A stretch of 64,000 bases of DNA from Polyangiaceae bacterium (GCA_032229665.1 JAVTWR010000059.1:113191-177190); one strand, 5' to 3'. Counted from the stretch's first letter, positions 4,590 to 49,531 are shown. Notes: generated by a model from the letters alone, not told the origin. Made by a program: numbers and translations.

Positions 4590-4606
4590 TACCCAGGAGC
4601 GAAGCA

Positions 4607-4747
4607 ATGCCCACCGAGCTCGACATCATCGGAGCCATCGAAGCGGCCTATACGACCGAGGGGACCGACCAGGAGTGGCTCGAGCGTCTCGCCCATTGCG
4701 TAAGTCCGGCATTCGGCGCGGGCGGTCTTCACTCGCGATGGGCGTGA
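4607..4747 (+). pseudogene. truncated paralog of the N-terminus of the 2515..3501 LuxR-type regulator (46 codons, then stop)
   Basis: ATG at 4607 translates to MPTELDIIGAIEAAYTTEGTDQEWLERLAHCVSPAFGAGGLHSRWA*. Compare MATDLDVIGSIEAAYATEGTDDEWLGRVAAAVAPAFGAE of the upstream gene. Similarity ends near codon 40 and no HTH follows. Confidence 0.55.
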
Positions 4748-4991
4748 TGGTCTTGCAGATCTCCAGCTTCGCCTTGGCCTCGTCGATGCGGCCACTGTTG
4801 CTCACCGACTCACGGAGCCCCGTGGCCGGCGGTCGACAGAACGAGACTCGTTGATGGCCGCCGGCGCGACTGCTCTACGAGAGCTATCGATGCGCATGGT
4901 CAATTGAACGACGCGTGCGCGTGGACCGCCTTGCGGGTCCGGGGATGCGTGGGGGGCGCAGCGCCATGGGCGGCGTGGGCCGTTCGTACGC

Positions 4992-6338
4992 TCAGGGCGC
5001 CGGGCACGTGCGCTTGGGGAGTGGGAAGGGGGCGCGCGGGGTTTGGTCGAAGTCGAACGAGGCCATCATGCTGCCCACCACGCCGTCGCGGGCGTGCGGA
5101 TCGCGCTTGCTCATGAACTCCATGCCCCAGAGCTCTTCCACCAGGCGCGGCACGCTGGCTTGCTCGAGCGGCGTCTTGAGCACGAAGCCTTTCTTGGCGT
5201 AGGGCGAGATGACCATCGCCGGGAGTCGGAAGCCGGCCTGGAACACCTGACCGTTGGCGCACTTTCGCGCGGGCGGGGCCACGTGATCGTACCAGCCGCC
5301 CCAGTCGTCCCAGGTGACGATGATGGCCATCTCCTTCCACTGCGGGAGCTTCATGGCGGCGTTGATGATGTCGACGGTGAAGTTCTCGCCCACGCACGGG
5401 TAGGCCTCCGGGTGCTCCGATGCGTCGCCGCTCCACAGGTGGCCCACCGTGAGGTTGGCGATCTTGCCGGCGGCGAGGTCGGCCACCAAGTCGCCCTGCT
5501 TGCGGAAGTGCGAGGTGTAGCCGGGGGCGCTGGTGACGGACTTGAACATCTCGGGGATGGACCCACCGTAGTTCGACCAGGTGAAGCCCTTGGGCAAGTG
5601 GTCGGTGAGGGTCGGCACGTCGAAGCACGGCTTCACGGTGGCGGTGGTGCACTTGTCGGGATCGTACGAGGTGACGCGGACGTCGGGACCGGCCGCGCAA
5701 CCGCGCCCTTTGCACTCGCCGCCGTCCTTGGTGCACTTGGCGTTGTCGAGCACCAGTGATTGCCCGGTCCAGAACACCGTGTGGCCCGGGGTGCTGGGGC
5801 CGAGGGTGGTGGAGAAGAAGTGGTCGGCGAGCACGAAGTTGCGTGCATACTGCCAGTAATTGGGAATCTGCTGCTCGCTGTAGAAGTAGAACGGCCGCAC
5901 CGCGTCGCGGGTGTCGAAGCCATCCATCTTGCCGCCGTGGTAGGCGTTCTGCCCGCAGGTGTTGGAGTGGCAGATGTCCTTCATGAGCTGCGTGGGCGCA
6001 GCCTGCCGGGTGATGGTCTTGCCATTCGAGAGCTTGGCGGTCTTGGAGCTCTCGGCCCCGGGAAAGCCGGTGAAGTAGTTGTCGAAGGTGTGGTTCTCTT
6101 TGACCAGCACCATCACGTAGCGAATCTTCGAAGGGATGGGCGTGGTGTCGTCGCCGGGCGTGGGCGGGACGCCGGGGTCGTCGACGCCATCGACGCCGTC
6201 CTCGTCCTCACCGTCGTCGCCGTTGTCGACCACCGTGGGCGCCGCCGCGGGGCTCTCCGAGCGGCAGCCGTACGAGAGAAGCGTGCCGGCAGTGACGAGA
6301 CCGAGGGCGAGCGCAGAGACGACGCGAATCGAGGACAT
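4992..6338 (-). CDS. phosphoesterase-family lipoprotein (phospholipase C / AcpA acid phosphatase family)
   Basis: IRYVMVLVKENHTFDNYFTGFPG matches the PF04185 N-terminal signature, and a TWDDWGGWYDHV motif is present. Lipoprotein signal MSSIRVVSALALGLVTAGTLLSYGC. Start chosen at 6338 (alternative ATG at 6362); the listed ORF extends to 6494. Confidence 0.8.
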   Translation of the reverse strand: MSSIRVVSALALGLVTAGTLLSYGCRSESPAAAPTVVDNGDDGEDEDGVDGVDDPGVPPTPGDDTTPIPSKIRYVMVLVKENHTFDNYFTGFPGAESSKTAKLSNGKTITRQAAPTQLMKDICHSNTCGQNAYHGGKMDGFDTRDAVRPFYFYSEQQIPNYWQYARNFVLADHFFSTTLGPSTPGHTVFWTGQSLVLDNAKCTKDGGECKGRGCAAGPDVRVTSYDPDKCTTATVKPCFDVPTLTDHLPKGFTWSNYGGSIPEMFKSVTSAPGYTSHFRKQGDLVADLAAGKIANLTVGHLWSGDASEHPEAYPCVGENFTVDIINAAMKLPQWKEMAIIVTWDDWGGWYDHVAPPARKCANGQVFQAGFRLPAMVISPYAKKGFVLKTPLEQASVPRLVEELWGMEFMSKRDPHARDGVVGSMMASFDFDQTPRAPFPLPKRTCPAP

Positions 6339-11432: not shown

Positions 11433-12005
11433 ATGAAGCGTTTCGCCCTCCTCCTCGCGCTCGCGGCCCTCACCGGTGCGTGCACCGCCGACGTTCAGGA
11501 GGCCGGCGACGACGCGGAGGCGACGGTCCAGGAAGACCCCATCGTCCTGGCGACCGACACCAAGATCAAGAACGCCATCGTGAAGGCCTCGACCGGCGTC
11601 TACTACCTCTCGGAGAGCGATCACCCGCTGGTGTGGATTCGCTCCACCCAGGTCGCCACCGCGCCGGCCAACGCGGCGTTCATTCACCGCGCCTTCAATG
11701 CCGTCACCAACAACGACGCCATGGCCGACAAGCCGCTCTCGCAGATGAAGTCCGAGACGGTGGCATTCGAGACCTTCGCCTCGCGGCACGCCCCGGTGGC
11801 CGGCGAGGACGCCGACAACTTCGCCTACCACCAGCAGATCACCAAGGTGCTCGACCTGGTTCGCACCAACCTCAAGAACCCCATCGTCATCCGCTTGGGT
11901 CGCCCGCAGGGCAACTACCTGGTGGGCGCCATCTCGGTGTACATCGTCGGCACCTTGCCCAGCGGCAAGATCGGCGGCATCTTCACCGTCGCCGTCGAGA
12001 CCTGA
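11433..12005 (+). CDS. NuiA-like nuclease-inhibitor-family lipoprotein
   Basis: Lipobox MKRFALLLALAALTGAC. YYLSESDHPLVW and the C-terminal VLDLVRTNLKNPIVIRLG...VYIVGTLPSGKIGGIFTVAVET resemble my recollection of Anabaena NuiA (..FMSESEYPFEVF.. and ..LKSNLKNPQVYRLGEVELDVYVIGETPAGNLAGISTKVVET). This is recalled similarity, not a search result. Confidence 0.6.
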   Translation: MKRFALLLALAALTGACTADVQEAGDDAEATVQEDPIVLATDTKIKNAIVKASTGVYYLSESDHPLVWIRSTQVATAPANAAFIHRAFNAVTNNDAMADKPLSQMKSETVAFETFASRHAPVAGEDADNFAYHQQITKVLDLVRTNLKNPIVIRLGRPQGNYLVGAISVYIVGTLPSGKIGGIFTVAVET

Positions 12006-12018
12006 GCATCGCTACGGA

Positions 12019-12825
12019 TCACGGCGCGAAGGTTCGCGTGCGGTAGGCGGCCCGGGCGTCGAGACCGAAGCGCTCGAGGCCCGGCGCCACCGCGTGCTCC
12101 ATGGTGTTGCGGTAGATCTCGCCCATCTCTCCCGGGTCGACGTAGCCCAGCGCGTCGTCGTCGTCGGTGCGCGCTGCAGGCGCCTTCGGGGAATGCGCGA
12201 GCTCGCGCTCGGCCACGGCGAACGCGAAGCGCAGGTAGCGCGTGAGCGAGGCGCGCACTTCCGGCCGTGCGCGCAGCCATGCGTCCCAGCCCTCGAGGTA
12301 GAGAAAGCCGAAGCGCCCGTGGAGGGTCTCGTCGGCGAGGAGTGCCCGGATGGCGCTTCGCAGGTAGCGATCGCGGGCGCGCTCCAGGCTGAGCGTGAGG
12401 TAAGCCACCGCCGCCATCTCGGTGATGCAGGTGGTGTAGACCACGTTGCGCAGCGCGCACTCCTCCCGGGATACCTTGGCATGCGTAGCGATGCCGCTGG
12501 GCCCGCCCGCACCGGGAAGCTCGGGCCGCGACGCACCCAGCGCCACCGAGACGTCGGCGCAGCGCTCGGCGTGCACCAGCTCGTCTTGGGCCATGCGCAG
12601 CGTGACCGCCGAGGCCTCCAGCGAGGCGCCGGCGGCGAGCACCTGCGAGGCCAGCGCCGAGAACACGAAGGTGGAGCGATACTCGTTCTGCGTTCGCGTC
12701 GTCCACACGGCGCGCGCCCGGCCAACGGCGGCGGGATCGTAGGCCTCCGCCGCGAACGCGGCCCCGTCGTCCTCCACCCGCTGGAGGCTCGCGCGGAGCG
12801 CGCGGTACTCCGAGGCGAGCTGCAT
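12019..12825 (-). CDS. ferritin-like diiron-carboxylate protein
   Basis: Start MQLASEYRAL at 12825. Two E...ExxH pairs (NEYRS / DELVHAE and TEMAA / ADETLHG). No signal peptide. The ATG overlaps the upstream stop (TGATG). Paralog of the partial gene at 63539. Confidence 0.7.
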   Translation of the reverse strand: MQLASEYRALRASLQRVEDDGAAFAAEAYDPAAVGRARAVWTTRTQNEYRSTFVFSALASQVLAAGASLEASAVTLRMAQDELVHAERCADVSVALGASRPELPGAGGPSGIATHAKVSREECALRNVVYTTCITEMAAVAYLTLSLERARDRYLRSAIRALLADETLHGRFGFLYLEGWDAWLRARPEVRASLTRYLRFAFAVAERELAHSPKAPAARTDDDDALGYVDPGEMGEIYRNTMEHAVAPGLERFGLDARAAYRTRTFAP

Positions 12826-13148
12826 CAGACCGGCATTTCCGGCGGGGGAAGAGGACCCGCCACGCCGCCGCCGCTGTCTTCCGTGGCGGCATCCGATGTC
12901 GATGCATCTTGCACGGAACCGGCGTCGCGCTCGGTGCTTCCGTCGGCCACCGCCGCGTCGAGTGTCGATGCGTCGCCGGCCTTTCCGGCGTCTTTCTCGC
13001 CCGCGCTGGCGTCTTGGGTGGGCGCGCCGGAGCTGGAGGCCGGGGCCTCGGAGGAGCAAGCCGGAAGGGCCAACGTGGAGGCCAGCGCCAGGGCGCGGGC
13101 GAAGCGGACGTACTTGGGGTGAAGGTCGCGGGAGGAGGTCGATGCCAT
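12825..13148 (-). CDS. acidic low-complexity lipoprotein (107 aa), translationally coupled to the ferritin-like gene
   Basis: MASTSSRDLHPKYVRFARALALASTLALPAC lipobox. Asp/Ala/Ser/Gly-rich body. Ends GPLPPPEMPV. It is the tail of listed ORF 12825..13778. Confidence 0.55.
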   Translation of the reverse strand: MASTSSRDLHPKYVRFARALALASTLALPACSSEAPASSSGAPTQDASAGEKDAGKAGDASTLDAAVADGSTERDAGSVQDASTSDAATEDSGGGVAGPLPPPEMPV

Positions 13149-13191
13149 GCTCACACTTGGGAGTGCGCAGGCGCCTTCGTCACGAAATCGA

Positions 13192-13827
13192 TCAGAAGGG
13201 CGGCGGTACCAGATCGTCCGGGCCGACCGTGCGAAGCGGAATGCTGTCGGCCGGGTCGACCGCCTCGAGGCGTAGCCAGTTTTCCGGGCACCGCGCCGAC
13301 GCCAGCGTGTAGCGCGTGGTGTGGTCGCGATCGTAGTGGAGGTCGATGGCCGCAGGGCCTTCGTCGGGGATGTCGATGTCGAAGCTCGCTTGATACGCAG
13401 CCTCGGTGCCGCGCACCAGCCTCCCGTCGTTGTCGCGTCGGAGAAAGTAGATGCGGCAGCCGGCGGTGAACTCCATGCCCACCACGTCGCTGGGCGTGCT
13501 GGTGGGCCGCGCGCCGCACAACATCCAGCGATTGGCGGTGACGGCCACCACGTCCTTGGCGGTGGCGATGGCGTAGCGCGATCCACCGGCCTCGGCAGTG
13601 GCGGGACACAACGGGTAGCTGCACCCGTTGCCGCGCAGCGACGCGATCTCCTGGTCGAGCCAGTCGACGCAGCCGTAGAGTCGCGCGCCAGCCTCTTTCG
13701 CCGGGGTGCTCTGGATGGGCGTGGGCGCGCCTGCGTCGTTGGCGCCCAGGTCGACGGCGCGGGTGGCACACGCCACACCCAGCGCGCTTGCGAGAGCGCA
13801 GGTCAGACCGCGGCGTACCAAGCTCAT
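13192..13827 (-). CDS. hypothetical lipoprotein (output gene of ECF cassette A)
   Basis: MSLVRRGLTCALASALGVAC signal at an internal ATG (13827; alternative 13836) of listed ORF 13192..14391. 8 Cys. Globular composition. Confidence 0.65.
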   Translation of the reverse strand: MSLVRRGLTCALASALGVACATRAVDLGANDAGAPTPIQSTPAKEAGARLYGCVDWLDQEIASLRGNGCSYPLCPATAEAGGSRYAIATAKDVVAVTANRWMLCGARPTSTPSDVVGMEFTAGCRIYFLRRDNDGRLVRGTEAAYQASFDIDIPDEGPAAIDLHYDRDHTTRYTLASARCPENWLRLEAVDPADSIPLRTVGPDDLVPPPF

Positions 13828-13868
13828 GGGCGGCATCTTGGCCCGGATTGCCCGGGGTGCAAGGCCGT

Positions 13869-14600
13869 TCACAGGTCGCGCTCCCGAGAATCGGGGCCGC
13901 TGCCGACCACGGCGTCCACCGCCGGTAGGAGCATGCTCCGAGGAAAGCGCTTGCGGAAGCGGTCGGCTCTCGCCTGCGCATCGCCGCGCCGGCCCTGCGT
14001 GGCCAGCGCCTGGATCGCCAGCGCCTCGCGCTCCTCCACCAGCGCGCCCTGGGGGAACTTGCGCTCGTGCTCGCCCGTGGCCACCAGGGTGTTGGCGGCA
14101 TCTCCGCGGCCGAGTGCGCTTCGTGCCACGTCGAGCACCGCGCGCTCCTTGGCCAGGTCTTCGCCGTGCGCGGCGTTGGTGGCGCCGGGGGGCGCCGTGG
14201 GGGCGCGCGGCAGGTCCTCCAGCCGAAGTCCCGACGGCGAAGGCGCCGGCGGGGCCGTGAGCTGGGCCACGGTGACCGGGGTCGGCGGGGTCGGTCGATC
14301 GATGTAAACTACACGCTCGCGCGGGGGCAAGAGGAGCGAGCCCCCGAGGCCCAGACCGGCGCCGACCGCCAGCGCTGCCGCCAGAGCCCACGCGGGAAAG
14401 CCCGCGGCCAACGGAGCCGCAGGCGGCGAGGGAGCCGTGTTGCCGCCACTGCCGCCACTGCCGCCACTGCCGCCACTGGGGGGCGGGGGCAGCGCCGCCG
14501 CGAGCCGCGTGAGCACCCGCGCCTTGGCCTCGTCCGGCGCCGCGATGGTCTTGGCATCCTGGAGGAGCGTAGCGAGATCGTCGTCGATCGGGCCTTTCAC
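13869..14600 (-). CDS. membrane-anchored anti-sigma factor (cassette A)
   Basis: ATGA overlap with the ECF sigma gene. Short N-terminal helix, (SGG)4/Pro-rich spacer, one TM (FPAWALAAALAVGAGLGLGGSLLL). C-terminal motif HERKFPQGALVEEREALAIQAL...RFRKRFPRS is shared with the genes at 17260 and 48187. Confidence 0.65.
   Translation of the reverse strand: MKGPIDDDLATLLQDAKTIAAPDEAKARVLTRLAAALPPPPSGGSGGSGGSGGNTAPSPPAAPLAAGFPAWALAAALAVGAGLGLGGSLLLPPRERVVYIDRPTPPTPVTVAQLTAPPAPSPSGLRLEDLPRAPTAPPGATNAAHGEDLAKERAVLDVARSALGRGDAANTLVATGEHERKFPQGALVEEREALAIQALATQGRRGDAQARADRFRKRFPRSMLLPAVDAVVGSGPDSRERDL
14442..14477. repeat. perfect 4 x 9-bp tandem repeat (gccgccact), in frame, encoding (SGG)4
   Basis: Read directly: gccgccact gccgccact gccgccact gccgccact, inside the anti-sigma spacer region. 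Confidence 0.9.
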
Positions 14601-15136
14601 GGGCGGGCCTCCTTTCGGCTCTCGCGCTTGACGGCTTCGCGGAACTCCTCGCGTGCGAGCCGCAGCCGCGAGTAGGCGGTGTTCACGGGGATCTCCAGGG
14701 CGGCGGCGATCTCGGCCATGGGGGTCTCGTCGAGCTCGTGCAGGATGAAGACGGCCTGGCGATCGGGGTCGATCTTCCCGATGGCGCGCTCGACGAGGTG
14801 CTGGTTCTGTTTCATCTGGAGGAGCCGGTCGGCAGAGGGCAGGGGATCGCTCTCTTCGGCCTCGGTGCCCATTACCTCCCGGCGATGACGGGCCAGGCGG
14901 CGGTAGTCGGAGGCGAAGCGAAAAGCGAAAGCGAAGAGCCAGGGGCGGATCGGCCGCGCCGGATCGTAGGTGCCGATGCGCCGGTACACCTCAAGGAACA
15001 CGTCGTGGGTGAGGTCCTCGAGATCGCGCTCCTGGACGCCCAGGCGCCGGAGCGAAGTCCACACGTAGGCGAACTCCGCCTCGAAGATTGCATCGAAGCG
15101 GGCCCGTTCGGACATGTCGACGAGCGCCGCGGCCAT
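14597..15136 (-). CDS. ECF (sigma-70 family group 4) RNA polymerase sigma factor, cassette A
   Basis: Region 2 (DLEDLTHDVFLEVYRRIGTYDPARPIRPWLFAFAFR) and region 4 HTH (ETPMAEIAAALEIPVNTAYSRLRLAREEF). Confidence 0.9.
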   Translation of the reverse strand: MAAALVDMSERARFDAIFEAEFAYVWTSLRRLGVQERDLEDLTHDVFLEVYRRIGTYDPARPIRPWLFAFAFRFASDYRRLARHRREVMGTEAEESDPLPSADRLLQMKQNQHLVERAIGKIDPDRQAVFILHELDETPMAEIAAALEIPVNTAYSRLRLAREEFREAVKRESRKEARP

Positions 15137-15195
15137 TGGGTTCGCAAGGTACTTGGGTCCAGCGCCGGGCGATCGTCAAAGAATCGGCGGGATCC

Positions 15196-16185
15196 TCAGA
15201 AAACCACCGACGGGCCCACGCCGAAGGCCGCCGATACCGGGGAGAGCGCGTAGATGCTGCGGCCGTTGAGGCGGAACTCGTAGGGCAAGAGGGGCACCGC
15301 CAGCTCCGCAAAGGGGCGAATGGTGAGATTCTTGAAGACGGGGATGCTGGCGGCGACTCGGGCGCCTACCGCCAGATAGAGCACCGCGTCCGAGCCGGGC
15401 CGCGTGACCTCCCGGGTCTCCGCCACCAGCGAGCCGAGAGTGCCGTGGGCGCAGAGCGCGAGGATCGACAGGCGAAAGCAGGGGGCGACGCCCACTTCGA
15501 GGAGCGAAGTGGCTACCACGCCGCCTTCGCTCGTGGAACGCGAGGCTTGGGCATCGAAGCGTCCGGTGAGCTCCGCCTGGAACGCGCCGTAGCGGAAAGC
15601 GCCGAAGATATCCGGGCCGAAGGCCACCGCGGGGGCCGCGCCGATGGACATGTGGAGCGCGAGGCCGGCCTCGAAGCCGCTATGCGTCGTGGGCCGCGGC
15701 GGAGGCGGAGGCTGGTCGCGAGGTGGGGCCGGGGCCTGTGAGGACGGGGGCGCGGGCGGGGGATCTGCGGGCGGCGCGGGCGGATCGGGCGGTGGGGCCG
15801 GCGGATCCGGGGGTGGCCGCGTGAGGCTCAGGGGATCGAGGGCGATGCTGATGGTGAGCGCCAGGGTGGAGGTGAGATCGCCGCAGTCGTCGCTCTTCGA
15901 CTGCAGCTCGCGATCGCCCCGCTCCTTGCTGTCGGCGTCGATGAGCTTCACGTGGGCCACGAAGCGGGAGCCGACCCGCCGGACGTCCACCGAGACCGCG
16001 TTCTCCGCCACCGGTCGGAAGGGATCGTAGCCGAGGCGCGCAGCTACCGCCTGCCGCAGCGAGGCCTCGTCGGCGCACGCGGCGGCGCCCTCTCCGCGCA
16101 CGTAGGTGAGCTTGGCGGTGGGCGTTGCCGAGGCCGTCCGCGCGAAGAGCAAGAAAGGGAGAAGGACGAGCGCCGTGCGTCGCAT
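15196..16185 (-). CDS. secreted protein: two-Cys N-domain, Pro-rich linker, predicted small C-terminal beta-barrel (cassette A)
   Basis: Signal MRRTALVLLPFLLFARTASA (start 16185). PPPDPPAPPPDPPAPPADPPPAPP linker. The last ~150 aa show alternating hydrophobic/small residues and end ...GVGPSVVF (terminal Phe). Paralogs at 19251 and 49532. Confidence 0.6.
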   Translation of the reverse strand: MRRTALVLLPFLLFARTASATPTAKLTYVRGEGAAACADEASLRQAVAARLGYDPFRPVAENAVSVDVRRVGSRFVAHVKLIDADSKERGDRELQSKSDDCGDLTSTLALTISIALDPLSLTRPPPDPPAPPPDPPAPPADPPPAPPSSQAPAPPRDQPPPPPRPTTHSGFEAGLALHMSIGAAPAVAFGPDIFGAFRYGAFQAELTGRFDAQASRSTSEGGVVATSLLEVGVAPCFRLSILALCAHGTLGSLVAETREVTRPGSDAVLYLAVGARVAASIPVFKNLTIRPFAELAVPLLPYEFRLNGRSIYALSPVSAAFGVGPSVVF

Positions 16186-16231
16186 CGCGATGCGCGAGTG
16201 TGCACGTGCCCGCGAAGGACGCAAGCGTTGA

Positions 16232-17263
16232 CTACAAGATGGTCTTCGCGCAGCGGAATCCGGTGGTGGAACGAGGTGACCGTACCGGCTGGATCTCGGA
16301 CCAGGTGGTCTGCACCTGCTCGAGGTAACCCCAGTAGCCCGCGCCGCGCACGAGCTTCTCCGAGGTCCTTAGCGATGCCTCGCGGTCGGTGCCGGGGAAG
16401 TCGTCGGGCAGGGGATCGGTTCCGAAGGATCCGAAAGGGGCCGAGCTCCACACCCACTCGATGAGGCTTCCCGCCATGTCGTAGACGCCATCGCGGGAGA
16501 TGTCGCCGGGCGTGGCGAGCACCGGCTTGGGGAACCCGCAGCCGTTCTGGCCCTGACGAAAGTCGCCGCCGAGGCCGAAGAGCGCGTGCGCGCAGTCGGG
16601 CTCCGGCGTGTCACCCCACACGTACTTGCGACTCTGGCCGCGGCCGCTGGCGATGTACAGCCACTCCACGTCGGTGAGCAAGCGCATGCCGCGGAAGTAG
16701 CAGACGGCGACTGCCTGCGGATAGTTCACGCAGTTCACCGGCAGCTCGTCGATACCCTGCGTGTATGTTGCACCAATGCCGGTGCTGAGATCGCTGCAGG
16801 TGCGGTACCCATCCTCGGCCACGTAGGTGCTGTCGAGGGCGTACCAGCGCATGGTCTCCTGGTAGGGGCCACCGGGCTCGAGGGAGCACGTGCCGCTCGG
16901 GCAGGGCTCCGGCTTGCCCGCCTCGACCCAGGCGCGAAACTGCTTCACCGTCACCTCGTGGGTGTCGACGTAGAAGTCGTGGGTCAGTCGCACCGGGGCC
17001 AGGTCGGAGCCGCCGGACCGGTAACGGAACTTGTAGGCGAAGGAGCCGGCGGGAATGCGCACCGTCTCGGGGATGACGCCGCTGCTGCCGCTGGAACCGC
17101 TGCTGCCGCTGCTCCCACTCGATCCGCTGCTCCCACTCGATCCGCTGCTGGCTCCGGCCTCGGTGCCGCCGTCCACGGTGCGGCGATCGCCGAGGTCCTG
17201 AAGACCAATGCAGGATGCAACGACCGCGGTGGCGCCCAACAGGAGGAGGCGCGCGCGCGTCAC
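16232..17263 (-). CDS. FGE-sulfatase (SUMF1/EgtB/PvdO) domain lipoprotein (output gene of cassette B)
   Basis: Lipobox LLLLGATAVVASC and an (SSG)8 linker. THEVTVKQFRAWV, NCVNYPQAVAVCYF, GVYDMAGSLIEWVW and a ...FRCAK end are typical of the FGE-sulfatase fold. ATGA overlap with the upstream anti-sigma. Confidence 0.8.
   Translation of the reverse strand: MTRARLLLLGATAVVASCIGLQDLGDRRTVDGGTEAGASSGSSGSSGSSGSSGSSGSSGSSGVIPETVRIPAGSFAYKFRYRSGGSDLAPVRLTHDFYVDTHEVTVKQFRAWVEAGKPEPCPSGTCSLEPGGPYQETMRWYALDSTYVAEDGYRTCSDLSTGIGATYTQGIDELPVNCVNYPQAVAVCYFRGMRLLTDVEWLYIASGRGQSRKYVWGDTPEPDCAHALFGLGGDFRQGQNGCGFPKPVLATPGDISRDGVYDMAGSLIEWVWSSAPFGSFGTDPLPDDFPGTDREASLRTSEKLVRGAGYWGYLEQVQTTWSEIQPVRSPRSTTGFRCAKTIL
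17081..17155. repeat. Ser-Gly trinucleotide-type repeat tract, including a perfect 2 x 18-bp unit (gctgctcccactcgatcc at 17108-17143)
   Basis: Read directly. Encodes SSGSSGSSGSSGSSGSSGSSGSSG on the minus strand. Confidence 0.85.
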
Positions 17264-18027
17264 GGGGCCCCCAGGGCGGCGTCGATCTGTGGCAGGAGCA
17301 CGCTCTGAGGATAGCTCTTTCGGAAGCGCGCGGCGAAGGTCCGGGCCTCGGCGGTGCGCCCCTGGGCTGCGAGCGCCAGAATGCGCAGACCCTCGCGCTC
17401 TTCCCGGAGCTGCCCCTGGGGAAACTCCCGCTCGTGGCGGCTCACGGCGCTCAGGGCGGCGTCCGCGTGGCCGCGGGCGACGCCGGCACGCGCTGCATCG
17501 ATGAGCTCTCGTTCCCGGGCGAGATCGCTCTTGGCGTCGCTGGTCACCGAGGCGGTGGCGGTGGTGGGGGGGGCAGTGGTGGGCGCGGCGCTGGTGGAAG
17601 CCGAGGCGGAGGCGCTGGCGATGCCAACGGGGATCATCGTGGTGCTCGGAGCCGGAGCCGCGGGCAGGTACACCGTGATCGTCGGCGCCGGGACGGCCAT
17701 GGTGCGATCGACGGCGACACCTGCGCCCGTGCCCACCGCGAACGTGGTGGCGATGACCGCGGCGAGCTTGGCGCCGCCGAGCGCTGCACCTGCACCCGCA
17801 CCCGCGCCGGCACCCGCAGGCGGCGCTGCGCCACCGGGACCGGAGCCGCCGTCACCTCCATTGTGGCCTCCGCCGGTGCCGTCGGCACCGAAGCCCAGCG
17901 TCGGGCCGAGCGCGGCCTCGAGCTTGGCCATCACACGGCCGGACAGCTCGGGCTGGGCGCCGATGGCGCTGCGCTCCTCGTCGAGGAGCTCCCGCGCGAG
18001 ATCCGAGAGCGGTTCCAGGTCGCTCAT
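17260..18027 (-). CDS. membrane-anchored anti-sigma factor (cassette B)
   Basis: ATGA overlap with the sigma gene at 18024-18027. Gly/Ala-rich spacer, TM (KLAAVIATTFAVGTGAGVAV). Conserved C-terminal HEREFPQGQLREEREGLRILAL...RFRKSYPQS. Confidence 0.65.
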   Translation of the reverse strand: MSDLEPLSDLARELLDEERSAIGAQPELSGRVMAKLEAALGPTLGFGADGTGGGHNGGDGGSGPGGAAPPAGAGAGAGAGAALGGAKLAAVIATTFAVGTGAGVAVDRTMAVPAPTITVYLPAAPAPSTTMIPVGIASASASASTSAAPTTAPPTTATASVTSDAKSDLARERELIDAARAGVARGHADAALSAVSRHEREFPQGQLREEREGLRILALAAQGRTAEARTFAARFRKSYPQSVLLPQIDAALGAP

Positions 18028-18551
18028 GCTCTCCTCCGTCGTTGGCCGAGTCGTGCGGCGTGCTCTTCGAACTCGGCGCGCGCGGTGCGCAGGCGCGAGT
18101 ACACGGTGTTGAGGGGGATGCCGAGCATCTCGGCCATCTCCGGCGCGTCGAAGCCTTCGAGATCGTGCATGACGAAGACATCGCGGCGATCGTCATCCAT
18201 CTTGTCGAGGGCAGCGAGCGCGAGCGTACGCGCCTGCCCGGTGACGGCGGCATCTTCCGGTGAGGCTTCGCGGGCGACCACGTCCTCGCCCTGCTCGCTG
18301 GCGGCTTCGCGCCGCTTGCGCCGGTAGTTCGCGGCCATCCGGAAGGCAAAGCCGAAGAGCCACGGGCGTATCGGGCGCGCCGGGTCGAAGTCGCTCCACT
18401 TGCCGTGCACCGCCAGGAACGTCTCCTGCGCGGCGTCCTCGAGATCGCCTTCACGAACCCCGAGCCGGCGCAGCGTGCGACACACGTAGCCGAGCTCCGC
18501 GGCGAACATCGCCCGGAACGCCGCGAGCGCGTTGGGCGTCGACGGAGGCAT
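18024..18551 (-). CDS. ECF sigma factor, cassette B
   Basis: DLEDAAQETFLAVHGKWSDFDPARPIRPWLFGFAFR (region 2) and EMAEMLGIPLNTVYSRLRTARAEF (region 4). Confidence 0.9.
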   Translation of the reverse strand: MPPSTPNALAAFRAMFAAELGYVCRTLRRLGVREGDLEDAAQETFLAVHGKWSDFDPARPIRPWLFGFAFRMAANYRRKRREAASEQGEDVVAREASPEDAAVTGQARTLALAALDKMDDDRRDVFVMHDLEGFDAPEMAEMLGIPLNTVYSRLRTARAEFEEHAARLGQRRRRA

Positions 18552-18659
18552 CGGGCCGATGGTAGTCCGGAAATCAGCATCGCTTCTCGCGGTTTGTGCC
18601 GCGGCGGCGAATCCGTCGGAAATTCGGCCCTCGGACCAGCCCGAGGTGCGATGGTGTCG

Positions 18660-19229
18660 CTATCGCGCGACGGCCACGAACACCGGCTCGGTGGCGTTGC
18701 CATTGCCGGTGGCGCGCCGGAACCCCGCATCGCGCACCAGGTTGCGCTCGGCGAGCACACCGAGCACGTTGGCGCCGCTGGCAAAGCCCAGGGAAACGAG
18801 GTGCGCGTCGAGCTGGCGTGCGATGACGCCCTTGCTGCCTCGGCTCACCGCGAACGCGATGGCCTGCTCCAACTGCACCGCGCTCACCACCGGTGCGGCC
18901 GGGGTCGCTTTCGGCAGCTTGTTCGTGCGCGCGGCCTTGGGAGCTTTGGGGGCGACTGCCTTGGGGGCGACGGCCGTTCGGGCCTTGGGGGCCGCGGCTC
19001 GCGGCGTCGCCTTCGGAAGCGCCACGGGTGCGGGGGCCTTCGCGGCCTTGCGGGCCTTCGGGCTTCGTTCGGTGGACCGCGCCTTGCCGACGACCGCGCT
19101 CAGCTCCGTGAGGGTGATGGCCTCGATGGTCGAAAGAACATCGCGGTTGAGCTGGTTCACGAGACGGTCGAGCGCTTCCCGGAAGCTTTCCATGAGGTCG
19201 ACATACTCCGTAACCCCGGGCCCGCGCAA
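18660..19229 (-). CDS. histone-H1-like Lys/Ala/Pro-repeat protein with a globular C-terminal domain
   Basis: Central KARKAAKAPAPVALPKATPRAAAPKARTAVAPKAVAPKAPKAARTNKLPKA tract. Start could be MESFREAL at 19193 instead. Lies between the barrel-like gene and the sigma gene of cassette B. Confidence 0.6.
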   Translation of the reverse strand: MRGPGVTEYVDLMESFREALDRLVNQLNRDVLSTIEAITLTELSAVVGKARSTERSPKARKAAKAPAPVALPKATPRAAAPKARTAVAPKAVAPKAPKAARTNKLPKATPAAPVVSAVQLEQAIAFAVSRGSKGVIARQLDAHLVSLGFASGANVLGVLAERNLVRDAGFRRATGNGNATEPVFVAVAR

Positions 19230-19250
19230 CGCGTGCGGTGCGGCCGTCGA

Positions 19251-20291
19251 TCAGGGCGTGAGCGCCAAGCTCAACCCGAGGGTGCCGCTCACCGGCGACT
19301 GCGTCCAAACGGTCTCCTGGCTCACCTGAAAGCGCGTCCGTACCAGGGCCACGTCGAGCCCCAGGAACGGCTCGAGCTCGAAGAGGGCGCCGAGCGGTAC
19401 GGGTACGCCGATGCGTGCGCCCACGAAGCCTGCCAGCGTGCGGCGCACCGTGGGGCTGACGACGTCGGGTCCTTCACCCTGGGCGAAGCCGCCGTGGAGT
19501 GGCACGCACGCATTCAGATAGCGGCGGCGATAGCAGGCGACGACGCCACCGAGCACGAACGAGGCGCTCGCGCGATCGACGGTCTCGAGCTCGGTCGCGC
19601 CGAGGGTGCTCTCGAAGGCAATCTCGAGCCCGAGGCCGAAGGCGCCATATCGACCTTCGCCGCCCAGGCGCGCGCCGAGGGTCGGTGCCGGTCCGCGACC
19701 GACGCCAGCATACGTCGAGGCGCGCACCGCGAAGCGAAGGCGCGGACCTTCGGGGACGGGCGCGGGGGAAGTGCGCGGGGGCGTGGGAGCCGGCGGTGGG
19801 GGCCCGGCGCTCGCGCTCGGGGGCGTCGTCGCGCTGGGCTCGACGGTCGGCGGTGGGGGCGTTGATGGCAGCGCGGTGGCGCCTGCGCTGGCCGCGGCCT
19901 TCACCTTGCCGAGGGGATCGAGGAGCAGGCTCACCACCGACGCCATCGACTCCACCAGCTCCGAGCACTCGCCGCGCGGAGCCGTGAGCTCCCGACGGCC
20001 GATGACGCCGCCATCGGCGCCCCGGAGCACCACCTCGCCCCGGAGCTTTTGCTTGTCGTCGCGCAGCGTCGCGACCACCGTGCGGGCCGCACCGGCCTCG
20101 AAGGGATCGAGCCCCAGCCGCGCCGCCACGCGGTCGCGGAACGTGCGCTCGCCGGGGCACGAAGCGAGCGACGAGACGTTGGCGAACTCCAGCCGCGCGG
20201 TGGGCTTGTCGTCTTCGGCCCGGGCCAGCGTCGACACCAGCGCCCCGGCGAAACCGAGGAGCACGAGCGAGGGGGCCACACGACGGAGCAC
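19251..20291 (-). CDS. secreted two-Cys domain / Pro-rich / predicted beta-barrel protein (cassette B paralog)
   Basis: No in-frame ATG. A GTG at 20291 gives (M)LRRVAPSLVLLGFAGALVSTLARA as signal. The N-domain CPGERTFRDRVAARLGLDPF...CSELVESM aligns with CADEASLRQAVAARLGYDPF...CGDLTSTL of 15196..16185. PPPPTVEP...PPPPAPTPP linker. Confidence 0.6.
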   Translation of the reverse strand: MLRRVAPSLVLLGFAGALVSTLARAEDDKPTARLEFANVSSLASCPGERTFRDRVAARLGLDPFEAGAARTVVATLRDDKQKLRGEVVLRGADGGVIGRRELTAPRGECSELVESMASVVSLLLDPLGKVKAAASAGATALPSTPPPPTVEPSATTPPSASAGPPPPAPTPPRTSPAPVPEGPRLRFAVRASTYAGVGRGPAPTLGARLGGEGRYGAFGLGLEIAFESTLGATELETVDRASASFVLGGVVACYRRRYLNACVPLHGGFAQGEGPDVVSPTVRRTLAGFVGARIGVPVPLGALFELEPFLGLDVALVRTRFQVSQETVWTQSPVSGTLGLSLALTP

Positions 20292-20386
20292 GCTGCATTG
20301 CGTACCCTTTTCGGGACCCGTTTGCGAAATGATTCGCGGCCGCACTTTTCTTCGACGGAACGCCGCGGCGCCGACAATCCCCGGGC

Positions 20387-22060
20387 ATGAAGCCGACCTT
20401 GCTTTGCCTCTTCGCGGCGACCCTCGCCGGTTGTTCTCTCTTGCCCATGATCCAGACCGGAGGCGCCGCCGCCGGCGGCTACGATGGCGACGAGTGCAAC
20501 GAGGTGCGGCAGACCGAGGCCCAGGCCCAGGAGGCGCACGGAAGTGGCTCGGTGGAGGTCGCCAAGACGCCGCGAGAGCGCGCCCTCGTGGCCCTGTGCC
20601 CGGAGCTGCCGTTCGACGCTCACGACGCCGCCGGGCGCGGCTACGCCGGCACACGCTACCAGCGGCGATCGCTTCCCCGGCCCGAGGACATTCACGCGGA
20701 CTTCGATCTCCGGCATCCGACCATGCTCGACGTCACGTCGCTCATGTTCGCCGTGGTGCAGCCGGGGCGAGATCGCCGGCATTTGCACGGCCACACCGGT
20801 CCGCTCAAGATCGAGAAGCCCTTCGGCAACGAGCGCGCGGAGCGCGAGGAAACGGCGGTGGGCATGGCCGCGGTGTACGCCAGCTTCCTCGACGACGGCG
20901 CCCTCGATCGCGAGCTCGCGGCCACGCAGCTCCCCGCCGAGGCGCGGCAGCACTACAAGGCGCAGGTGCAGGCCGCGAAGCAGAACGTGGACGCGCTGCT
21001 CGGCGCCATGACGCCCACCGTGCGCAAGGTCGTCTACGAGATTCCGCTGCACATCGCGCAGGACCTTCGCAAGGAGTACGAGGCCAAGAAGAACTTCGGC
21101 GCGCGCCTCGACGTGCTGAGCGCCCAGGCCGACGAAGCCCGCAAGGGCGGCGGCAACCCCTCGAAGGTCGCGCAGGAGCTGACGCAGCTCCGGAGCGACG
21201 TGGTCACCGTGTGCGGGGCCACCGAGGAGTGCACGTACCACCCGCTCTACGCCGAGATCACCCACGAGCTCGCCACCCTCTACGTGGCCACCAAGCAGGT
21301 GGACCTGGCGCGCGCCGAGAGCGCTCTCCTGACGCGCAAGGACTCCATGAAGCGCACGTTCCAGCCCGCCGTCTACGCCGCGCAGTACGAGGCCGGTGAG
21401 CGGTCCACCAAGGCGCTCCAGGCGAAGAAGTCGGCGAGCAAGCTCGACCCCAAGCTGGCCAAGGCCATGGACGCCGACGATCCGGTGAGCTTCTCGTTCG
21501 CCGATTTCTTCCGGGCTGGCTCGAGCATGCCCTTCATCGCTTCGGCCTTGGGGGGCGACGGCAGCCCCACGCCCGTCTCCGGATACGTGCAGGCGGTGTC
21601 GCGCAAAGGCGACAAGAGCCTCGTGGAGTTCAAGACCGAGTACCAGAGCGTCGACGTGCCGACCAACTGCTACACCACCGGCCGCATCGCGCGCATCCAG
21701 TCGGACGGGCGCATCGAGTACGAGGAGAGTTGCCAGTACCGCACCGAGCGTCAGGCGCTCCCCAAGCCGGAGCCCATCCTGATACCGAGCCGCGAGGCCG
21801 CGGGCATCAAGGCCGGCGAGCTCGTCCGCATCTGGGGCGCCAAGGACGGGGTGGTGGAGCAGGTGCACGAGACCAAGAACGGCGGCCTCGTGCTGGTGCA
21901 GCTCCGGGGCGATCGCGTGCGCGGCGAGAAGGCCGAGCGCCCGCAGAAGAGCTCGGCGGGCACCAGCGCAGCGCCGAAGGATCCGCGGCCGGCCGATGCC
22001 CCCGCGGCACCCGCTTCCACGGGGCCGATTGCGCGCGAAGCGGGTCGTCTCGCTCGGTGA
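20387..22060 (+). CDS. hypothetical lipoprotein (557 aa)
   Basis: MKPTLLCLFAATLAGC lipobox. Long helical/charged middle, Pro/Ala-rich tail. Good GC3. Confidence 0.7.
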   Translation: MKPTLLCLFAATLAGCSLLPMIQTGGAAAGGYDGDECNEVRQTEAQAQEAHGSGSVEVAKTPRERALVALCPELPFDAHDAAGRGYAGTRYQRRSLPRPEDIHADFDLRHPTMLDVTSLMFAVVQPGRDRRHLHGHTGPLKIEKPFGNERAEREETAVGMAAVYASFLDDGALDRELAATQLPAEARQHYKAQVQAAKQNVDALLGAMTPTVRKVVYEIPLHIAQDLRKEYEAKKNFGARLDVLSAQADEARKGGGNPSKVAQELTQLRSDVVTVCGATEECTYHPLYAEITHELATLYVATKQVDLARAESALLTRKDSMKRTFQPAVYAAQYEAGERSTKALQAKKSASKLDPKLAKAMDADDPVSFSFADFFRAGSSMPFIASALGGDGSPTPVSGYVQAVSRKGDKSLVEFKTEYQSVDVPTNCYTTGRIARIQSDGRIEYEESCQYRTERQALPKPEPILIPSREAAGIKAGELVRIWGAKDGVVEQVHETKNGGLVLVQLRGDRVRGEKAERPQKSSAGTSAAPKDPRPADAPAAPASTGPIAREAGRLAR

Positions 22061-48089: not shown

Positions 48090-48186
48090 GAGAGGAGCTC
48101 CTTGGAAGTCGTCGGCGCGAGGATGAAGGGAGGTGCGCGACTCGGTGGGTGAGTGCGCGACGGACTCGACTCTCGTCAAAGAATCG

Positions 48187-49523: not shown

Positions 49524-49531
49524 GCCTTCCG

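Follow-up and report, generated by a model that had tools for sequence, protein, structure and literature searches.

The window, the whole 64,000-nucleotide stretch of Polyangiaceae DNA that was analysed, contains three cassettes that are paralogues of one another. Each lies on the minus strand and is composed of a barrel-like protein, here called Bar, an ECF sigma factor, a single-pass anti-sigma factor and a lipoprotein. All of the open reading frames of the original prediction were confirmed on the minus strand at the coordinates it gave. It had also named a third barrel-like copy at 49532–50581; this is indeed a paralogue, but it too lies on the minus strand, and it heads a complete third cassette. 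The features are as follows.

19251–20291, minus: Bar B; signal peptide, then an α/β N-domain of ~100 aa, a tether rich in Pro and, at the C-terminus, a small β-barrel; profile match 2.5e-165
18660–19193, minus: Lys/Ala/Pro-rich ORF separating Bar B from the sigma B promoter, outside the conserved cassette
18592–18622, minus: promoter-like element of sigma B, TTTCCGACGGA-N13-CACAAAC; PWM score 18.7
18024–18551, minus: ECF sigma B; Pfam Sigma70_r2 1e-9, Sigma70_r4_2 2e-13; TIGR02937 3e-20
17260–18027, minus: anti-sigma B; overlaps sigma B by ATGA; cytoplasmic helices (~40 aa), a Gly-rich spacer, a single TM and the periplasmic TPR pair
16232–17263, minus: tagged lipoprotein B; tag CIGLQDLGD; FGE-sulfatase PF03781 1e-26; GTGA overlap with anti-sigma B
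15196–16185, minus: Bar A; N-domain 24–121, Pro-rich tether 122–168, β-barrel 169–329 ending in Phe
15151–15182, minus: promoter-like element of sigma A, TCTTTGACGAT-N14-CCCAAGT; PWM score 22.8
14597–15136, minus: ECF sigma A; Pfam and NCBIfam matches; nearest solved sigma CnrH, E 2e-10
13869–14600, minus: anti-sigma A; GTGA overlap with sigma A
13192–13872, minus: tagged lipoprotein A; tag CATRAVDLGAND; without known domain
13155–13186, minus: second promoter-like element of cassette A, TTCGTGACGAA-N14-CCCAAGT; PWM score 24.4, the best in the window
12825–13148, minus: small acidic untagged lipoprotein, 107 aa; starts 6 nt after the -10 of the preceding element
12019–12825, minus: 268-aa ORF; TGATG overlap with the small lipoprotein; two E-x-x-H motifs; without family match
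49532–50581, minus: Bar C, third paralogue; alignment with the other Bars, profile search
49505–49538, minus: promoter-like element of sigma C, TCTTTGACGGA-N16-CACCCAC; its internal TGA is the Bar C stop codon
48915–49496, minus: ECF sigma C; Pfam, profile match
48187–48918, minus: anti-sigma C; ATGA overlap with sigma C; alignment, profile match
48149–48182, minus: promoter-like element of lipoprotein C, TCTTTGACGAG-N16-CACTCAC; shares its variant -10 and spacing with the sigma C site
46809–48089, minus: tagged lipoprotein C; tag CNGNIDIALG; RCC1-repeat β-propeller, PF25390 2e-45

The four-part gene set is real and its pattern is far beyond chance, since over 100 independent loci carry the same genes. 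Bar adjoins the sigma/anti-sigma pair on one strand in nearly all of 37 genome loci, and an independent set of metagenome loci gave the same association in 66 of the 71 that were assessable. The order Bar–sigma–anti-sigma accounts for 49 of the 71; a second common order, sigma–anti-sigma–Bar followed by one to three tagged lipoproteins, was found in 17, and in five Bar was without a sigma gene in view. Outside this genome the synteny of Bar with the pair holds across Polyangia, down to 28% Bar identity. Each cassette is best explained as an ECF sigma module that spans the envelope and is complete in itself, characteristic of the class Polyangia, whose soil myxobacteria have many copies. The earlier description of cassettes A and B as a tandem duplication overstates how recent they are. 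Identity between the two is 33% for Bar, 46% for the sigma factors and 42% for the anti-sigma factors, whereas relatives of Bar A in other genomes reach 50–90%. From this divergence in sequence, A and B are anciently diverged paralogues lying in tandem rather than recent duplicates.

The proposed ATGA overlaps are present at sigma B/anti-sigma B and sigma C/anti-sigma C, but sigma A/anti-sigma A and anti-sigma B/FGE overlap by GTGA instead. A GTGA start is also possible for lipoprotein A (13872, overlapping anti-sigma A), with 13836 and 13827 as further candidate starts. A 4-nt overlap with the stop codon of the anti-sigma gene is common among fourth genes.

The three Bar proteins could be aligned from end to end (identity to Bar A of 33% for Bar B and 24% for Bar C), with the Cys pair and the RLG.DPF motif present throughout. 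Where two conserved Cys had been described, four were found: C37 and C101 in the N-domain, and C236 and C245 in the barrel. AlphaFold2 modeled Bar A with high confidence (pLDDT = 90.5), and the expectation of a membrane-type barrel held in that the C-terminal region was predicted to be a small closed β-barrel. DSSP lists nine strand segments; at 161 aa the barrel has the size of 8-stranded proteins. Its best structural neighbors identified by Foldseek are OmpX (E 5e-7, TM 0.67 normalised to target), OmpA-TM, Ail, NspA and OmpW, with E-values from 5e-7 to 1e-3. Compared to OmpA, the domain order is reversed, with the Bar periplasmic domain being N-terminal and tethered. Bar further differs from the small 8-stranded proteins in having no sequence-family match and a conserved Cys pair within one hairpin. 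The surface loops of the model are very short, which would make Bar itself a poor ligand sensor.

The Bar A N-domain (residues 24–121) has a β-α-β-β-β-α order and most resembles the TolB N-terminal domain (TM 0.61 normalised to query), LptE, LpoB, PqiC and PelC. With these best matches, a FecA/STN-type signaling domain was rejected. The N-domain and tether are the best-conserved part of Bar, and the tether is Pro-rich and from 45 to about 230 residues long. A terminal Phe or Phe-Pro is present in Bar A and many homologs; the last residue of Bar B and of Bar C is not Phe. At E ≤ 1e-10, Bar has matches in about 17,000 clusters (50% identity). From the models, Bar is a predicted outer-membrane protein with an OmpX/OmpA-like barrel and a disulfide-type α/β periplasmic domain on a tether.

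Sigma A and sigma B both match Sigma70_r2 and Sigma70_r4_2; the sigma is of the ordinary ECF type with two domains. The anti-sigma factors could be aligned at 42% and 29% identity and share the C-terminal HE..FP.G.L.EERE motif that had been noticed. Each has a cytoplasmic helical segment of ~40 residues, a single TM and a periplasmic TPR pair of the BamD/CpoB type. A profile search of the PDB matched the periplasmic domain to BamD residues 30–100 (E 1.6e-4) and weakly to CpoB; Pfam YfiO matches 16 of 22 members, and JGI names fragments of the domain as "BamD/ComL family" or "TolA-binding protein". Neither Pfam nor profile searches gave a FecR-family match, and the N-terminus matches no solved anti-sigma domain. 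The anti-sigma role is putative, assigned solely from membrane topology and the place of the gene in the cassette.

Each sigma gene is preceded by a bipartite promoter-like element, TGACGGA-N14-CCCAA, and further copies stand ahead of lipoprotein genes or other targets in the same locus. It was found without prior assumption: TGACG..CCCA occurs in 14 of 33 intergenic regions compared to at most 5 in shuffles, and of 28 loci 22 have the N14 spacing. The element also directly precedes fourth or fifth genes or divergent neighbors in more than 15 loci, and these recurrences lie outside the PWM training sites. Two sites of one locus share their -10 and spacer (6.4 of 7 bases, as against 4.6 of 7 between loci), a likeness reached in 0 of 20,000 permutations. 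The second cassette A element has a -10 identical to that of the sigma A site, and its ortholog in locus L003 also scores 24.4. Of the 49 replicate loci with the Bar-first order, only 34 reached the PWM threshold. Since Bar has no promoter element upstream in this order and lies inside the sigma operon in the other, its regulatory position is not uniform.

One to three downstream genes per cassette encode lipoproteins. They share a short membrane-proximal tag, C-x(1-4)-x-V-D-L-G/D, placed immediately behind the lipid-anchor Cys and ahead of a low-complexity linker. Of 71 lipoprotein-like ORFs that lie downstream of cassette genes, 46 have the tag, compared to 15 of 103 others (p = 8.7e-12; p = 2.6e-8 in an earlier, stricter test); about a third of the downstream lipoproteins are without it. 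The C-terminal domains of tagged lipoproteins are mutually unrelated. In the window, the predicted FGE-sulfatase domain of lipoprotein B was recovered, and lipoprotein A is homologous to the fourth gene of loci L007 and L015. With translational coupling or a second copy of the sigma-gene promoter element, the proposed control of downstream lipoprotein genes by the sigma is plausible, as predicted from sequence. Taken with the second gene order, the shared tag suggests that Bar may work with lipoproteins rather than simply sense a signal.

The original prediction did not recognize this architecture as a described system, and searches of the literature, Pfam and NCBIfam agree: no describing paper and no family for Bar were found. 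The cassette resembles a gene switch of a new kind, one that spans the envelope, of which the promoter-like element, the shared lipoprotein tag and the BamD/CpoB-like TPR pair as an anti-sigma sensor domain are new. Similar in layout are FecI/FecR/FecA and the SusC-type transducers with ECF sigma/anti-sigma pairs of Bacteroides polysaccharide utilisation loci. These also encode together an ECF sigma, an anti-sigma that crosses the membrane once and has a periplasmic domain, and an outer-membrane barrel with an N-terminal periplasmic extension, and in the cassette, too, the sigma is predicted to drive adjacent envelope-protein genes. In contrast, the Bar barrel has roughly eight strands without a plug or TonB box, its N-domain is not STN, the TPR pair replaces FecR domains and the targets are tagged lipoproteins. 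The Fec-like assignment therefore stands in principle but not in its parts, and nothing points to TonB dependence.

In Cupriavidus metallidurans, CnrH/CnrY/CnrX offers the nearest solved sigma. The very short cytoplasmic sigma-binding segment of CnrY represents the class II anti-sigma domain type (PMC8103513). Single-pass CnrY has a cytoplasmic segment similar in size to the anti-sigma N-terminus here, though without a sequence match; the cassette has no CnrX-like sensor, and Cnr no outer-membrane partner or tagged lipoproteins. In the Rcs system, the lipoprotein RcsF, whose N-terminal linker is flexible, forms a complex with an outer-membrane barrel (OmpA/C/F, BamA), and the periplasmic domain of inner-membrane IgaA probably reads whether this complex forms. 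The likeness lies in linker-bearing lipoproteins with a barrel and an inner-membrane periplasmic reader; Rcs differs in being a phosphorelay, in having a single conserved lipoprotein where the cassettes have many variable ones, and in lacking a dedicated barrel gene or shared tag. The anti-sigma periplasmic domain resembles BamD (YfiO) and CpoB (YbgF), but has two TPR units (~90 aa) fused to a TM anti-sigma where BamD is a five-TPR lipoprotein of the BAM complex. Like the Bacteroidota lipoprotein export signal, the tag is a short motif right after the lipidated Cys that marks a subset of lipoproteins; it reads x-V-D-L-G/D as opposed to the acidic K/S-D-D type, and an export role is putative. 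Slam, too, matches a TPR domain plus an outer-membrane barrel to neighboring lipoprotein substrates, but the Bar barrel is far smaller, and TPR and barrel are on separate proteins.

The reading that we favor, with a probability of about one half, is an envelope-spanning module in which Bar, the anti-sigma TPR and the tagged lipoprotein jointly gate the ECF sigma. At rest, the anti-sigma would hold the sigma at the inner membrane while the tethered Bar N-domain would span the periplasm to the TPR domain and the lipoprotein tag would engage the Bar/TPR pair. The N-terminal TPRs of BamD, which include the matched residues 30–100, bind extended peptide signals according to the BAM literature. A change at the outer membrane, possibly ligand binding by the variable lipoprotein domain or failed assembly of a Bar–lipoprotein complex, would alter the contact; the anti-sigma would then be inactivated, probably by regulated proteolysis, and the freed sigma would transcribe its own operon and the tagged-lipoprotein genes with positive feedback. 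The long low-complexity tethers of both Bar and the anti-sigma argue for reach across the periplasm. The short Bar loops, the varying regulatory position of Bar, the loci below the PWM threshold, the untagged lipoproteins and the loci without a sigma in view weigh against this joint gating. So does the fact that the tag, RLGYDPF, TPR motif and promoter are common to paralogous cassettes of one genome, which makes it hard to see how three or more cassettes would avoid cross-talk.

Such sharing is what a common sorting signal predicts, and a possible but tentative alternative is lipoprotein handling with quality control. Bar would be a dedicated outer-membrane receptor, anchor or export partner and the tag a new sorting or docking signal, with the BamD-like TPR monitoring undocked tag or unassembled Bar and tuning production; LptD–LptE, RcsF threaded through OmpA/C/F and Slam with its substrates would be analogous. 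The 17 loci in which tagged lipoproteins follow Bar, the position of the tag between lipidated Cys and flexible linker, a Bar N-domain fold class (LptE, LpoB, PelC, PqiC, TolB-N) of periplasmic or lipoprotein-associated modules and the likeness of the TPR to the peptide-binding half of BamD are all consistent with it. However, about eight strands make too narrow a barrel for a translocon on its own, a tether of 45 to 230 residues is superfluous for binding the tag at the outer membrane, and a generic sorting factor would not require its own Bar in each cassette.

The strictly FecA-like model of the original prediction, where Bar alone senses, its N-domain relays to the anti-sigma and the lipoproteins are pure outputs with a tag unrelated to signaling, is unlikely. 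It would account for the one-to-one conservation of Bar with the pair, tethers able to span the periplasm and the sigma-type promoter element at lipoprotein genes, but Bar is without plug, TonB box or STN fold, the anti-sigma is without a FecR domain, the predicted loops are minimal and the cassette-specific tag is left unexplained. Sensing of assembly stress in the manner of sigma-E is still more doubtful. The BamD-like TPR would bind the C-terminal β-signal of unassembled Bar, a dedicated reporter of outer-membrane protein assembly; the match to the BamD N-terminal region and the terminal Phe or Phe-Pro of many Bars fit, while Bar B and Bar C have no such Phe and neither the conserved N-domain and tether nor the many paralogous cassettes per genome and tagged lipoproteins are explained. 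Least credible is a mini-autotransporter that exports the Bar N-domain through its own barrel to act at the cell surface, with the sigma/anti-sigma pair a mere neighboring regulator. The order of N-terminal domain, linker and C-terminal barrel is that of type Va autotransporters and there are weak Foldseek matches to the NalP and AaaA translocators, yet the best matches are OmpX, OmpA and Ail, the size is not that of a 12-stranded barrel and the N-domain has a conserved Cys pair.

The insert in cassette B had been called histone-like. It is a Lys/Ala/Pro-rich ORF that has no family match in Pfam or NCBIfam and is not homologous to the extra gene in locus L029; its likely start is the ATG at 19193.

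The module is a widespread, undescribed ECF cassette in which the gene for a Bar protein (a signal peptide, a ~100-aa alpha/beta N-domain, a Pro-rich tether and a small C-terminal beta-barrel) accompanies genes for an ECF sigma factor, a single-pass anti-sigma and a lipoprotein. Three new sequence-level features make it directly testable. The window, with a G+C content of about 70%, contains three such cassettes. Every ORF position reported for cassettes A and B in the original prediction was recovered exactly on the minus strand, and a third barrel gene that had been singled out (49532-50581) also lies on the minus strand, where it heads a complete third cassette, C.

20291-19251, minus strand: Bar B
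19193-18660, minus strand: Lys/Ala/Pro-rich ORF of 177 aa with globular ends, between Bar B and the sigma B promoter element
18551-18024, minus strand: sigma B
18027-17260, minus strand: anti-sigma B
17263-16232, minus strand: FGE-sulfatase lipoprotein of cassette B, the FGE domain being confirmed by Pfam/NCBIfam
16185-15196, minus strand: Bar A
15136-14597, minus strand: sigma A
14600-13869, minus strand: anti-sigma A
ending at 13192, minus strand: lipoprotein A
49532-50581, minus strand: Bar C
49496-48915, minus strand: sigma C
48918-48187, minus strand: anti-sigma C
48089-46809, minus strand: RCC1-repeat lipoprotein of cassette C

Cassettes A and B had been read as a tandem duplication. A recent event is rejected by the identities among the paralogues (Bar 33% and 24%, sigma A/B 46%, anti-sigma 42% and 29%). 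Since the A/B values of 33%, 46% and 42% compare with 50-90% identity between Bar A and its relatives in other genomes, the two cassettes are better described as old paralogues in tandem. Proteins from a Polyangiaceae metagenome-assembled genome and from a metagenome contig match Bar A at 97-99% identity. The Lys/Ala/Pro-rich ORF at 18660-19193, previously called a histone-like insert, has no family match and was rejected as a recurring part of the cassette; it is missing from the other loci examined, and an extra gene at one of them (L029) is not homologous.

Synteny was assessed by profile searches of all ORFs of the fetched loci, each profile combining the three copies of a protein in the window. 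Among 35 genome loci and those of Minicystis and Polyangium aurulentum, Bar, sigma and anti-sigma share one strand in this order almost without exception where the contig allows. In an independent metagenome set of 79 loci, the order was Bar-sigma-anti-sigma in 49 and sigma-anti-sigma-Bar in 17, the latter having Bar directly next to the anti-sigma, with lipoprotein genes beyond it. A sigma was not visible at five loci, and a further eight could not be assessed, their sequence being too short or missing on one side; thus, the association holds for 66 of the 71 assessable metagenome loci, and the expectation that the barrel gene would accompany sigma/anti-sigma pairs outside this genome was borne out. 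A sigma and a ~240-aa gene also adjoin each of three remote homologues of Bar (about 28-44% identity over the aligned part), with a divergent orientation in one of the three.

The Bar family is very large and lacks annotation. Searching with Bar A returned 106 relatives of about 310-370 aa, all unnamed and all without Pfam domains, with Minicystis, P. aurulentum, Polyangiales and Myxococcales as the named sources. Against 1.84 billion cluster representatives (clusters at 50% identity), a Bar profile matched 22,857 at E ≤ 1e-3, 17,201 at E ≤ 1e-10 and 4,144 at E ≤ 1e-30. Bar A, B and C had zero matches at E ≤ 0.1 in Pfam and NCBIfam, and hence none to OMP_b-brl, OmpA_membrane or Ail_Lom.

An AlphaFold2 model of Bar A, built on a 70-sequence alignment, had a mean pLDDT of 90.5. 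It is composed of an N-terminal signal peptide, a beta-alpha-beta-beta-beta-alpha domain (residues 24-121), a Pro-rich linker of low confidence (residues 122-168) and a 161-aa beta-barrel (residues 169-329, pLDDT 95-98). The C-terminal region had been proposed to be a barrel, and the model agrees, presenting a small OmpX-like fold at that confidence. A Foldseek search of the barrel against the PDB identified OmpX (E 5e-7, TM 0.67 normalised to target), the OmpA transmembrane domain, Ail, NspA and OmpW, with a probability of 1.00 for OmpX, OmpA, Ail and NspA. From the predicted structure, Bar fits the OmpX/OmpA-TM class, being a closed antiparallel barrel with a signal peptide. Since DSSP assigned nine strand segments, it is described here as a small barrel of roughly eight strands. 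A type V autotransporter, with a 12-strand translocator barrel and a helical linker, was considered and rejected, as the Bar barrel is too small; autotransporter matches were weak (E > 1e-3, TM 0.25).

The N-domain modelled alone had a pLDDT of 92.5. Its top match was the TolB N-terminal domain (TM 0.61 normalised to query, E 2e-3), with weaker matches to HPF/YfiA, LpoB, LptE, PqiC and PelC; neither FecA nor an STN signalling domain was among its structural matches. The N-domain is the best-conserved part of Bar, with the motif AVAARLGYDPF. Conserved cysteines occur within it (C37 and C101) and across one barrel hairpin (C236 and C245). The linker varies from about 45 to about 230 residues, and the Bar and anti-sigma genes are both high in Ala, Pro and Gly. 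Two longer homologues were considered as Rosetta-stone fusions and dismissed: P0100 has an unchanged architecture with a longer linker, and P0159 has an N-terminal extension before the signal peptide.

Sigmas A, B and C each contain Sigma70_r2 and Sigma70_r4_2, score above the TIGR02937 cut-off and, with only sigma-2 and sigma-4 domains in about 170-200 aa, belong to the ECF (group IV) sigmas. The nearest solved sigma is CnrH. In an alignment, 23 anti-sigmas share one layout: two short helices within the first ~40 residues, then a spacer rich in Gly, a single hydrophobic stretch, a linker that varies and a well-conserved C-terminal domain of ~90 residues. A profile of this last domain matched BamD (9pxg_D, residues 30-100, E 1.6e-4) over two repeats and, weakly, CpoB/YbgF. 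The Pfam family YfiO (PF13525) was matched by 16 of 22 members (best 3.7e-6) and TPR_14 by 20 of 22, and JGI names for fragments of the domain include 'BamD/ComL family' and 'TolA-binding protein'; the latter come from a search of a 5.8-billion-protein database that returned mostly short fragments, useful for source names only. The window anti-sigmas gave nothing significant against Pfam/NCBIfam. BamD itself is a full-length five-TPR lipoprotein of the BAM complex, whereas the anti-sigma domain is ~90 aa and C-terminal in a transmembrane protein encoded after a sigma gene.

The role of the anti-sigma is inferred from its position, the 4-nt overlap with the sigma gene and its topology. The absence of a zinc (ZAS) motif, noted earlier, is upheld, as the ~40-aa cytoplasmic segment has no conserved Cys or His in the 23 sequences and there were no zf-HC2 or RsdA matches in Pfam or NCBIfam. 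A ZAS or class I anti-sigma, defined by H-x3-C-x2-C and a four-helix domain of ~80-90 aa, was rejected for a segment of only ~40 aa with no PDB anti-sigma match. A class II (CnrY-like) anti-sigma, whose sigma-binding cytoplasmic part is short and two-helical, would fit with respect to size, as the cytoplasmic segment of CnrY is also very short, and to the nearest sigma, CnrH; no sequence similarity to CnrY was detected, and the matches of the N-terminus in the PDB were at chance level, with neither CnrY nor any other anti-sigma domain among them.

The cassette had been likened to FecI/FecR/FecA, with a mini-barrel in place of the transducer. The analogy to cell-surface signalling (FecIRA, SusC-type transducers) holds in principle, but not for the defining features of that family. 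FecIRA requires a TonB-dependent transducer with a 22-strand barrel, a plug and an N-terminal STN domain, whereas the Bar barrel is 161 aa and OmpX-like. The FecIRA anti-sigma belongs to the FecR family, whereas the Pfam/NCBIfam searches of the cassette anti-sigmas yielded only TPR and YfiO and no FecR, DUF4880 or DUF4974. The pairing of a barrel with lipoproteins recalls RcsF with outer-membrane proteins, LptDE and Slam. Consistent with the view that this is not a described system, full-text literature searches did not find the partner set, and no group matching it is named in the main text or Table 2 of the ECF classification 2.0 paper (PMC7826278). The gene neighbourhood may nevertheless already be recorded in an ECF Hub group, with no mechanism attached.

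Most genes downstream of the anti-sigma (in the second order, downstream of Bar) code for lipoproteins. These are unrelated in their C-terminal parts, with few alignable pairs and Pfam matches that are all singletons (FGE-sulfatase, RCC1, Beta_helix, DUF1554, DUF5050, Vgb_lyase, Endostatin and DUF2169). What most of them have in common is a short motif that sits immediately behind the lipobox Cys and leads into a low-complexity linker. This tag takes forms such as CATRAVDLGAND, CIGLQDLGD, CNGNIDIALG, CGQTLDLGSN, CASRPVDVGSN and CSAIAVDLDAT, with the consensus C-x(1-4)-[KRG]-[AT]-V-D-L-[G/D]. Over all loci, with near-duplicates of the window removed, the tag was present in 46 of 71 lipoprotein-like ORFs downstream of cassette genes and in 15 of 103 others (Fisher p = 8.7e-12, and p = 2.6e-8 in a stricter test run earlier). 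Several of the tagged others are in fact divergent cassette neighbours or lie downstream of a promoter element, and at some loci two or three tagged lipoproteins occur in a row.

When bipartite k-mers were counted without bias in the intergenic regions between Bar and sigma, TGACG/GACGG/ACGGA occurred with CCCA/CCAA in up to 14 of 33 loci (shuffles ≤ 5). Iterating a PWM over 28 non-redundant loci gave the consensus T-rich-TGACGGA-N14-CCCAA(G/T), with a spacing of exactly 14 in 22 of the 28. Upstream of Bar, no such element was found by the k-mer count, nor by the PWM in the window. Within the -35-like TGACGGA, the TGA frequently doubles as the stop codon of the preceding gene, either Bar (...F-P-stop) or the anti-sigma (...P-stop), as at 49505-49538 on the minus strand of the window and at many loci; coding and promoter signals are therefore superimposed. 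A PWM scan of the window returned five matches of at least 15 (shuffles 0-4), which are listed here with nearby genes.

before sigma A, minus strand: element, PWM score 22.8
before sigma B, minus strand: element, PWM score 18.7
13186-13155, minus strand: element just after the lipoprotein A stop, PWM score 24.4, the best in the window
20349-20379, plus strand: element TCTTCGACGGA-N13-GACAATC, PWM score 18.4, 8 nt before the divergent lipoprotein gene at 20387
31528: element, PWM score 17.7, likely chance
13148-12825, minus strand: small acidic lipoprotein of 107 aa, untagged, 6 nt after the element at 13186-13155
12825-12019, minus strand: 268-aa ORF with two E-x-x-H motifs and no family match, coupled to the 107-aa lipoprotein gene through a TGATG overlap
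20387-22060, plus strand: divergent 557-aa lipoprotein gene next to Bar B

The score of 18.4 is near chance level for a 64-kb window. The 107-aa lipoprotein and the 268-aa ORF look like an extra regulon member of cassette A, conserved in another locus (L003), and an ATG only 6 nt from the -10 suggests a leaderless mRNA. At other loci, sites outside the training set follow the anti-sigma stop or precede the fourth or fifth gene (L001, L003, L005, L006, L011, L021, L027, L031, L032, L033 and L035). The element also precedes divergent neighbours (L013, L030, L032 and L037, with strong elements in the last three) and is present in L029. Sites within a locus resemble each other: the -10 heptamers agree at 6.4 of 7 positions within a locus vs 4.6 of 7 between loci, the spacer is the same in 83% vs 36%, and none of 20,000 permutations reached the observed likeness. 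This covariation is as expected if the sigma of each locus reads both of its sites. The sites of cassette C have their own variant, TTTGACGGA-N16-CACCCAC and TTTGACGAG-N16-CACTCAC, in a register chosen by eye.

Given these parts, predicted folds and topology, a near-obligate linkage and a shared promoter element and tag, a set of contacts may be proposed. The anti-sigma would hold the sigma. In the periplasm, the tethered N-domain of Bar, the lipoprotein tag or both would contact the TPR domain of the anti-sigma, and an altered contact would release the sigma, which would then drive more transcription from its own operon and from the genes for tagged lipoproteins. The long tether suits Bar to reaching an inner-membrane partner, while the tag, the second gene order and the minimal loops of Bar argue that it acts with the lipoproteins and not as a lone sensor; a model that combines the two is favoured. 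Besides being outputs, the lipoproteins could act as ligand-binding inputs through their variable domains (propellers, lectin-like folds, beta-helix). Specificity poses the chief problem, as the tag, the Bar and TPR motifs and the promoter are alike between paralogous cassettes of one genome. A bolder reading, which we hold to be rather unlikely, is that Bar and the V-D-L-G/D tag form an unrecognised pathway for lipoprotein handling or display. Proteins of the Bar family would then read the tag as a new signal for sorting or docking, the BamD-like TPR would monitor occupancy, and Polyangia would use dozens of cassettes to deploy, or sense through, a variable repertoire of outer-membrane lipoproteins.

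By review count, 102 ECF groups are unstudied, and most have never been studied (PMC8103513). Polyangia have ECF repertoires among the largest known, such as 70-82 in Sorangium (PMC7826278). The cassette provides a concrete wiring diagram, open to test, that may apply to a large share of the Polyangia ECF sigmas, and Bar a new outer-membrane partner family of about 17,000 clusters at 50% identity (E ≤ 1e-10) with no Pfam/NCBIfam entry. The defined promoter motif makes the regulon predictable from sequence alone, and the new short tag ties dozens of unrelated secreted proteins to one regulatory logic. Should the contacts of the favoured combined model be true, sigma signalling from the outer to the inner membrane would have a second form, one without a TonB box, a plug or a FecA-type signalling domain. 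Should the tag be a sorting signal, it would add to the knowledge of how lipoproteins are placed in diderm envelopes.

In the window, a NuiA-like (nuclease A inhibitor) lipoprotein (11433-12005, plus strand; Pfam PF07924, 1e-12) is convergent with the end of cassette A, and intrinsic terminators and sigma-70 promoters between 11900 and 20800 were no more frequent than chance. In a Polyangiaceae metagenome-assembled genome whose Bar A is 98% identical (L004:1451-4213), the gap from the FGE-lipoprotein gene to Bar A is ~2.7 kb vs 47 nt in the window, indicating an insertion or deletion between close relatives. Alternative layouts (L016, L038, L071 and 17 loci in L073-L120) are of two kinds: sigma, anti-sigma and Bar, then as many as three lipoproteins of ~250-400 aa whose tag is the variant V-D-L-D or V-E-L-D, or Bar divergent from the sigma operon. 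In P. aurulentum (CP079217, L002:7023-10888), the gene following Bar is annotated as one product of 415 aa that has sigma region 4 and, at its end, a weak match to the anti-sigma C-domain; a sigma/anti-sigma fusion or an error in gene calling could account for this. The gene beyond it encodes a DUF2169 protein and no lipoprotein, and the promoter element is below threshold. Finally, a second locus contains two Bar genes within 4 kb (L100:908-1936 and 4294-5286), suggesting that arrays of neighbouring cassettes like A and B may be common.
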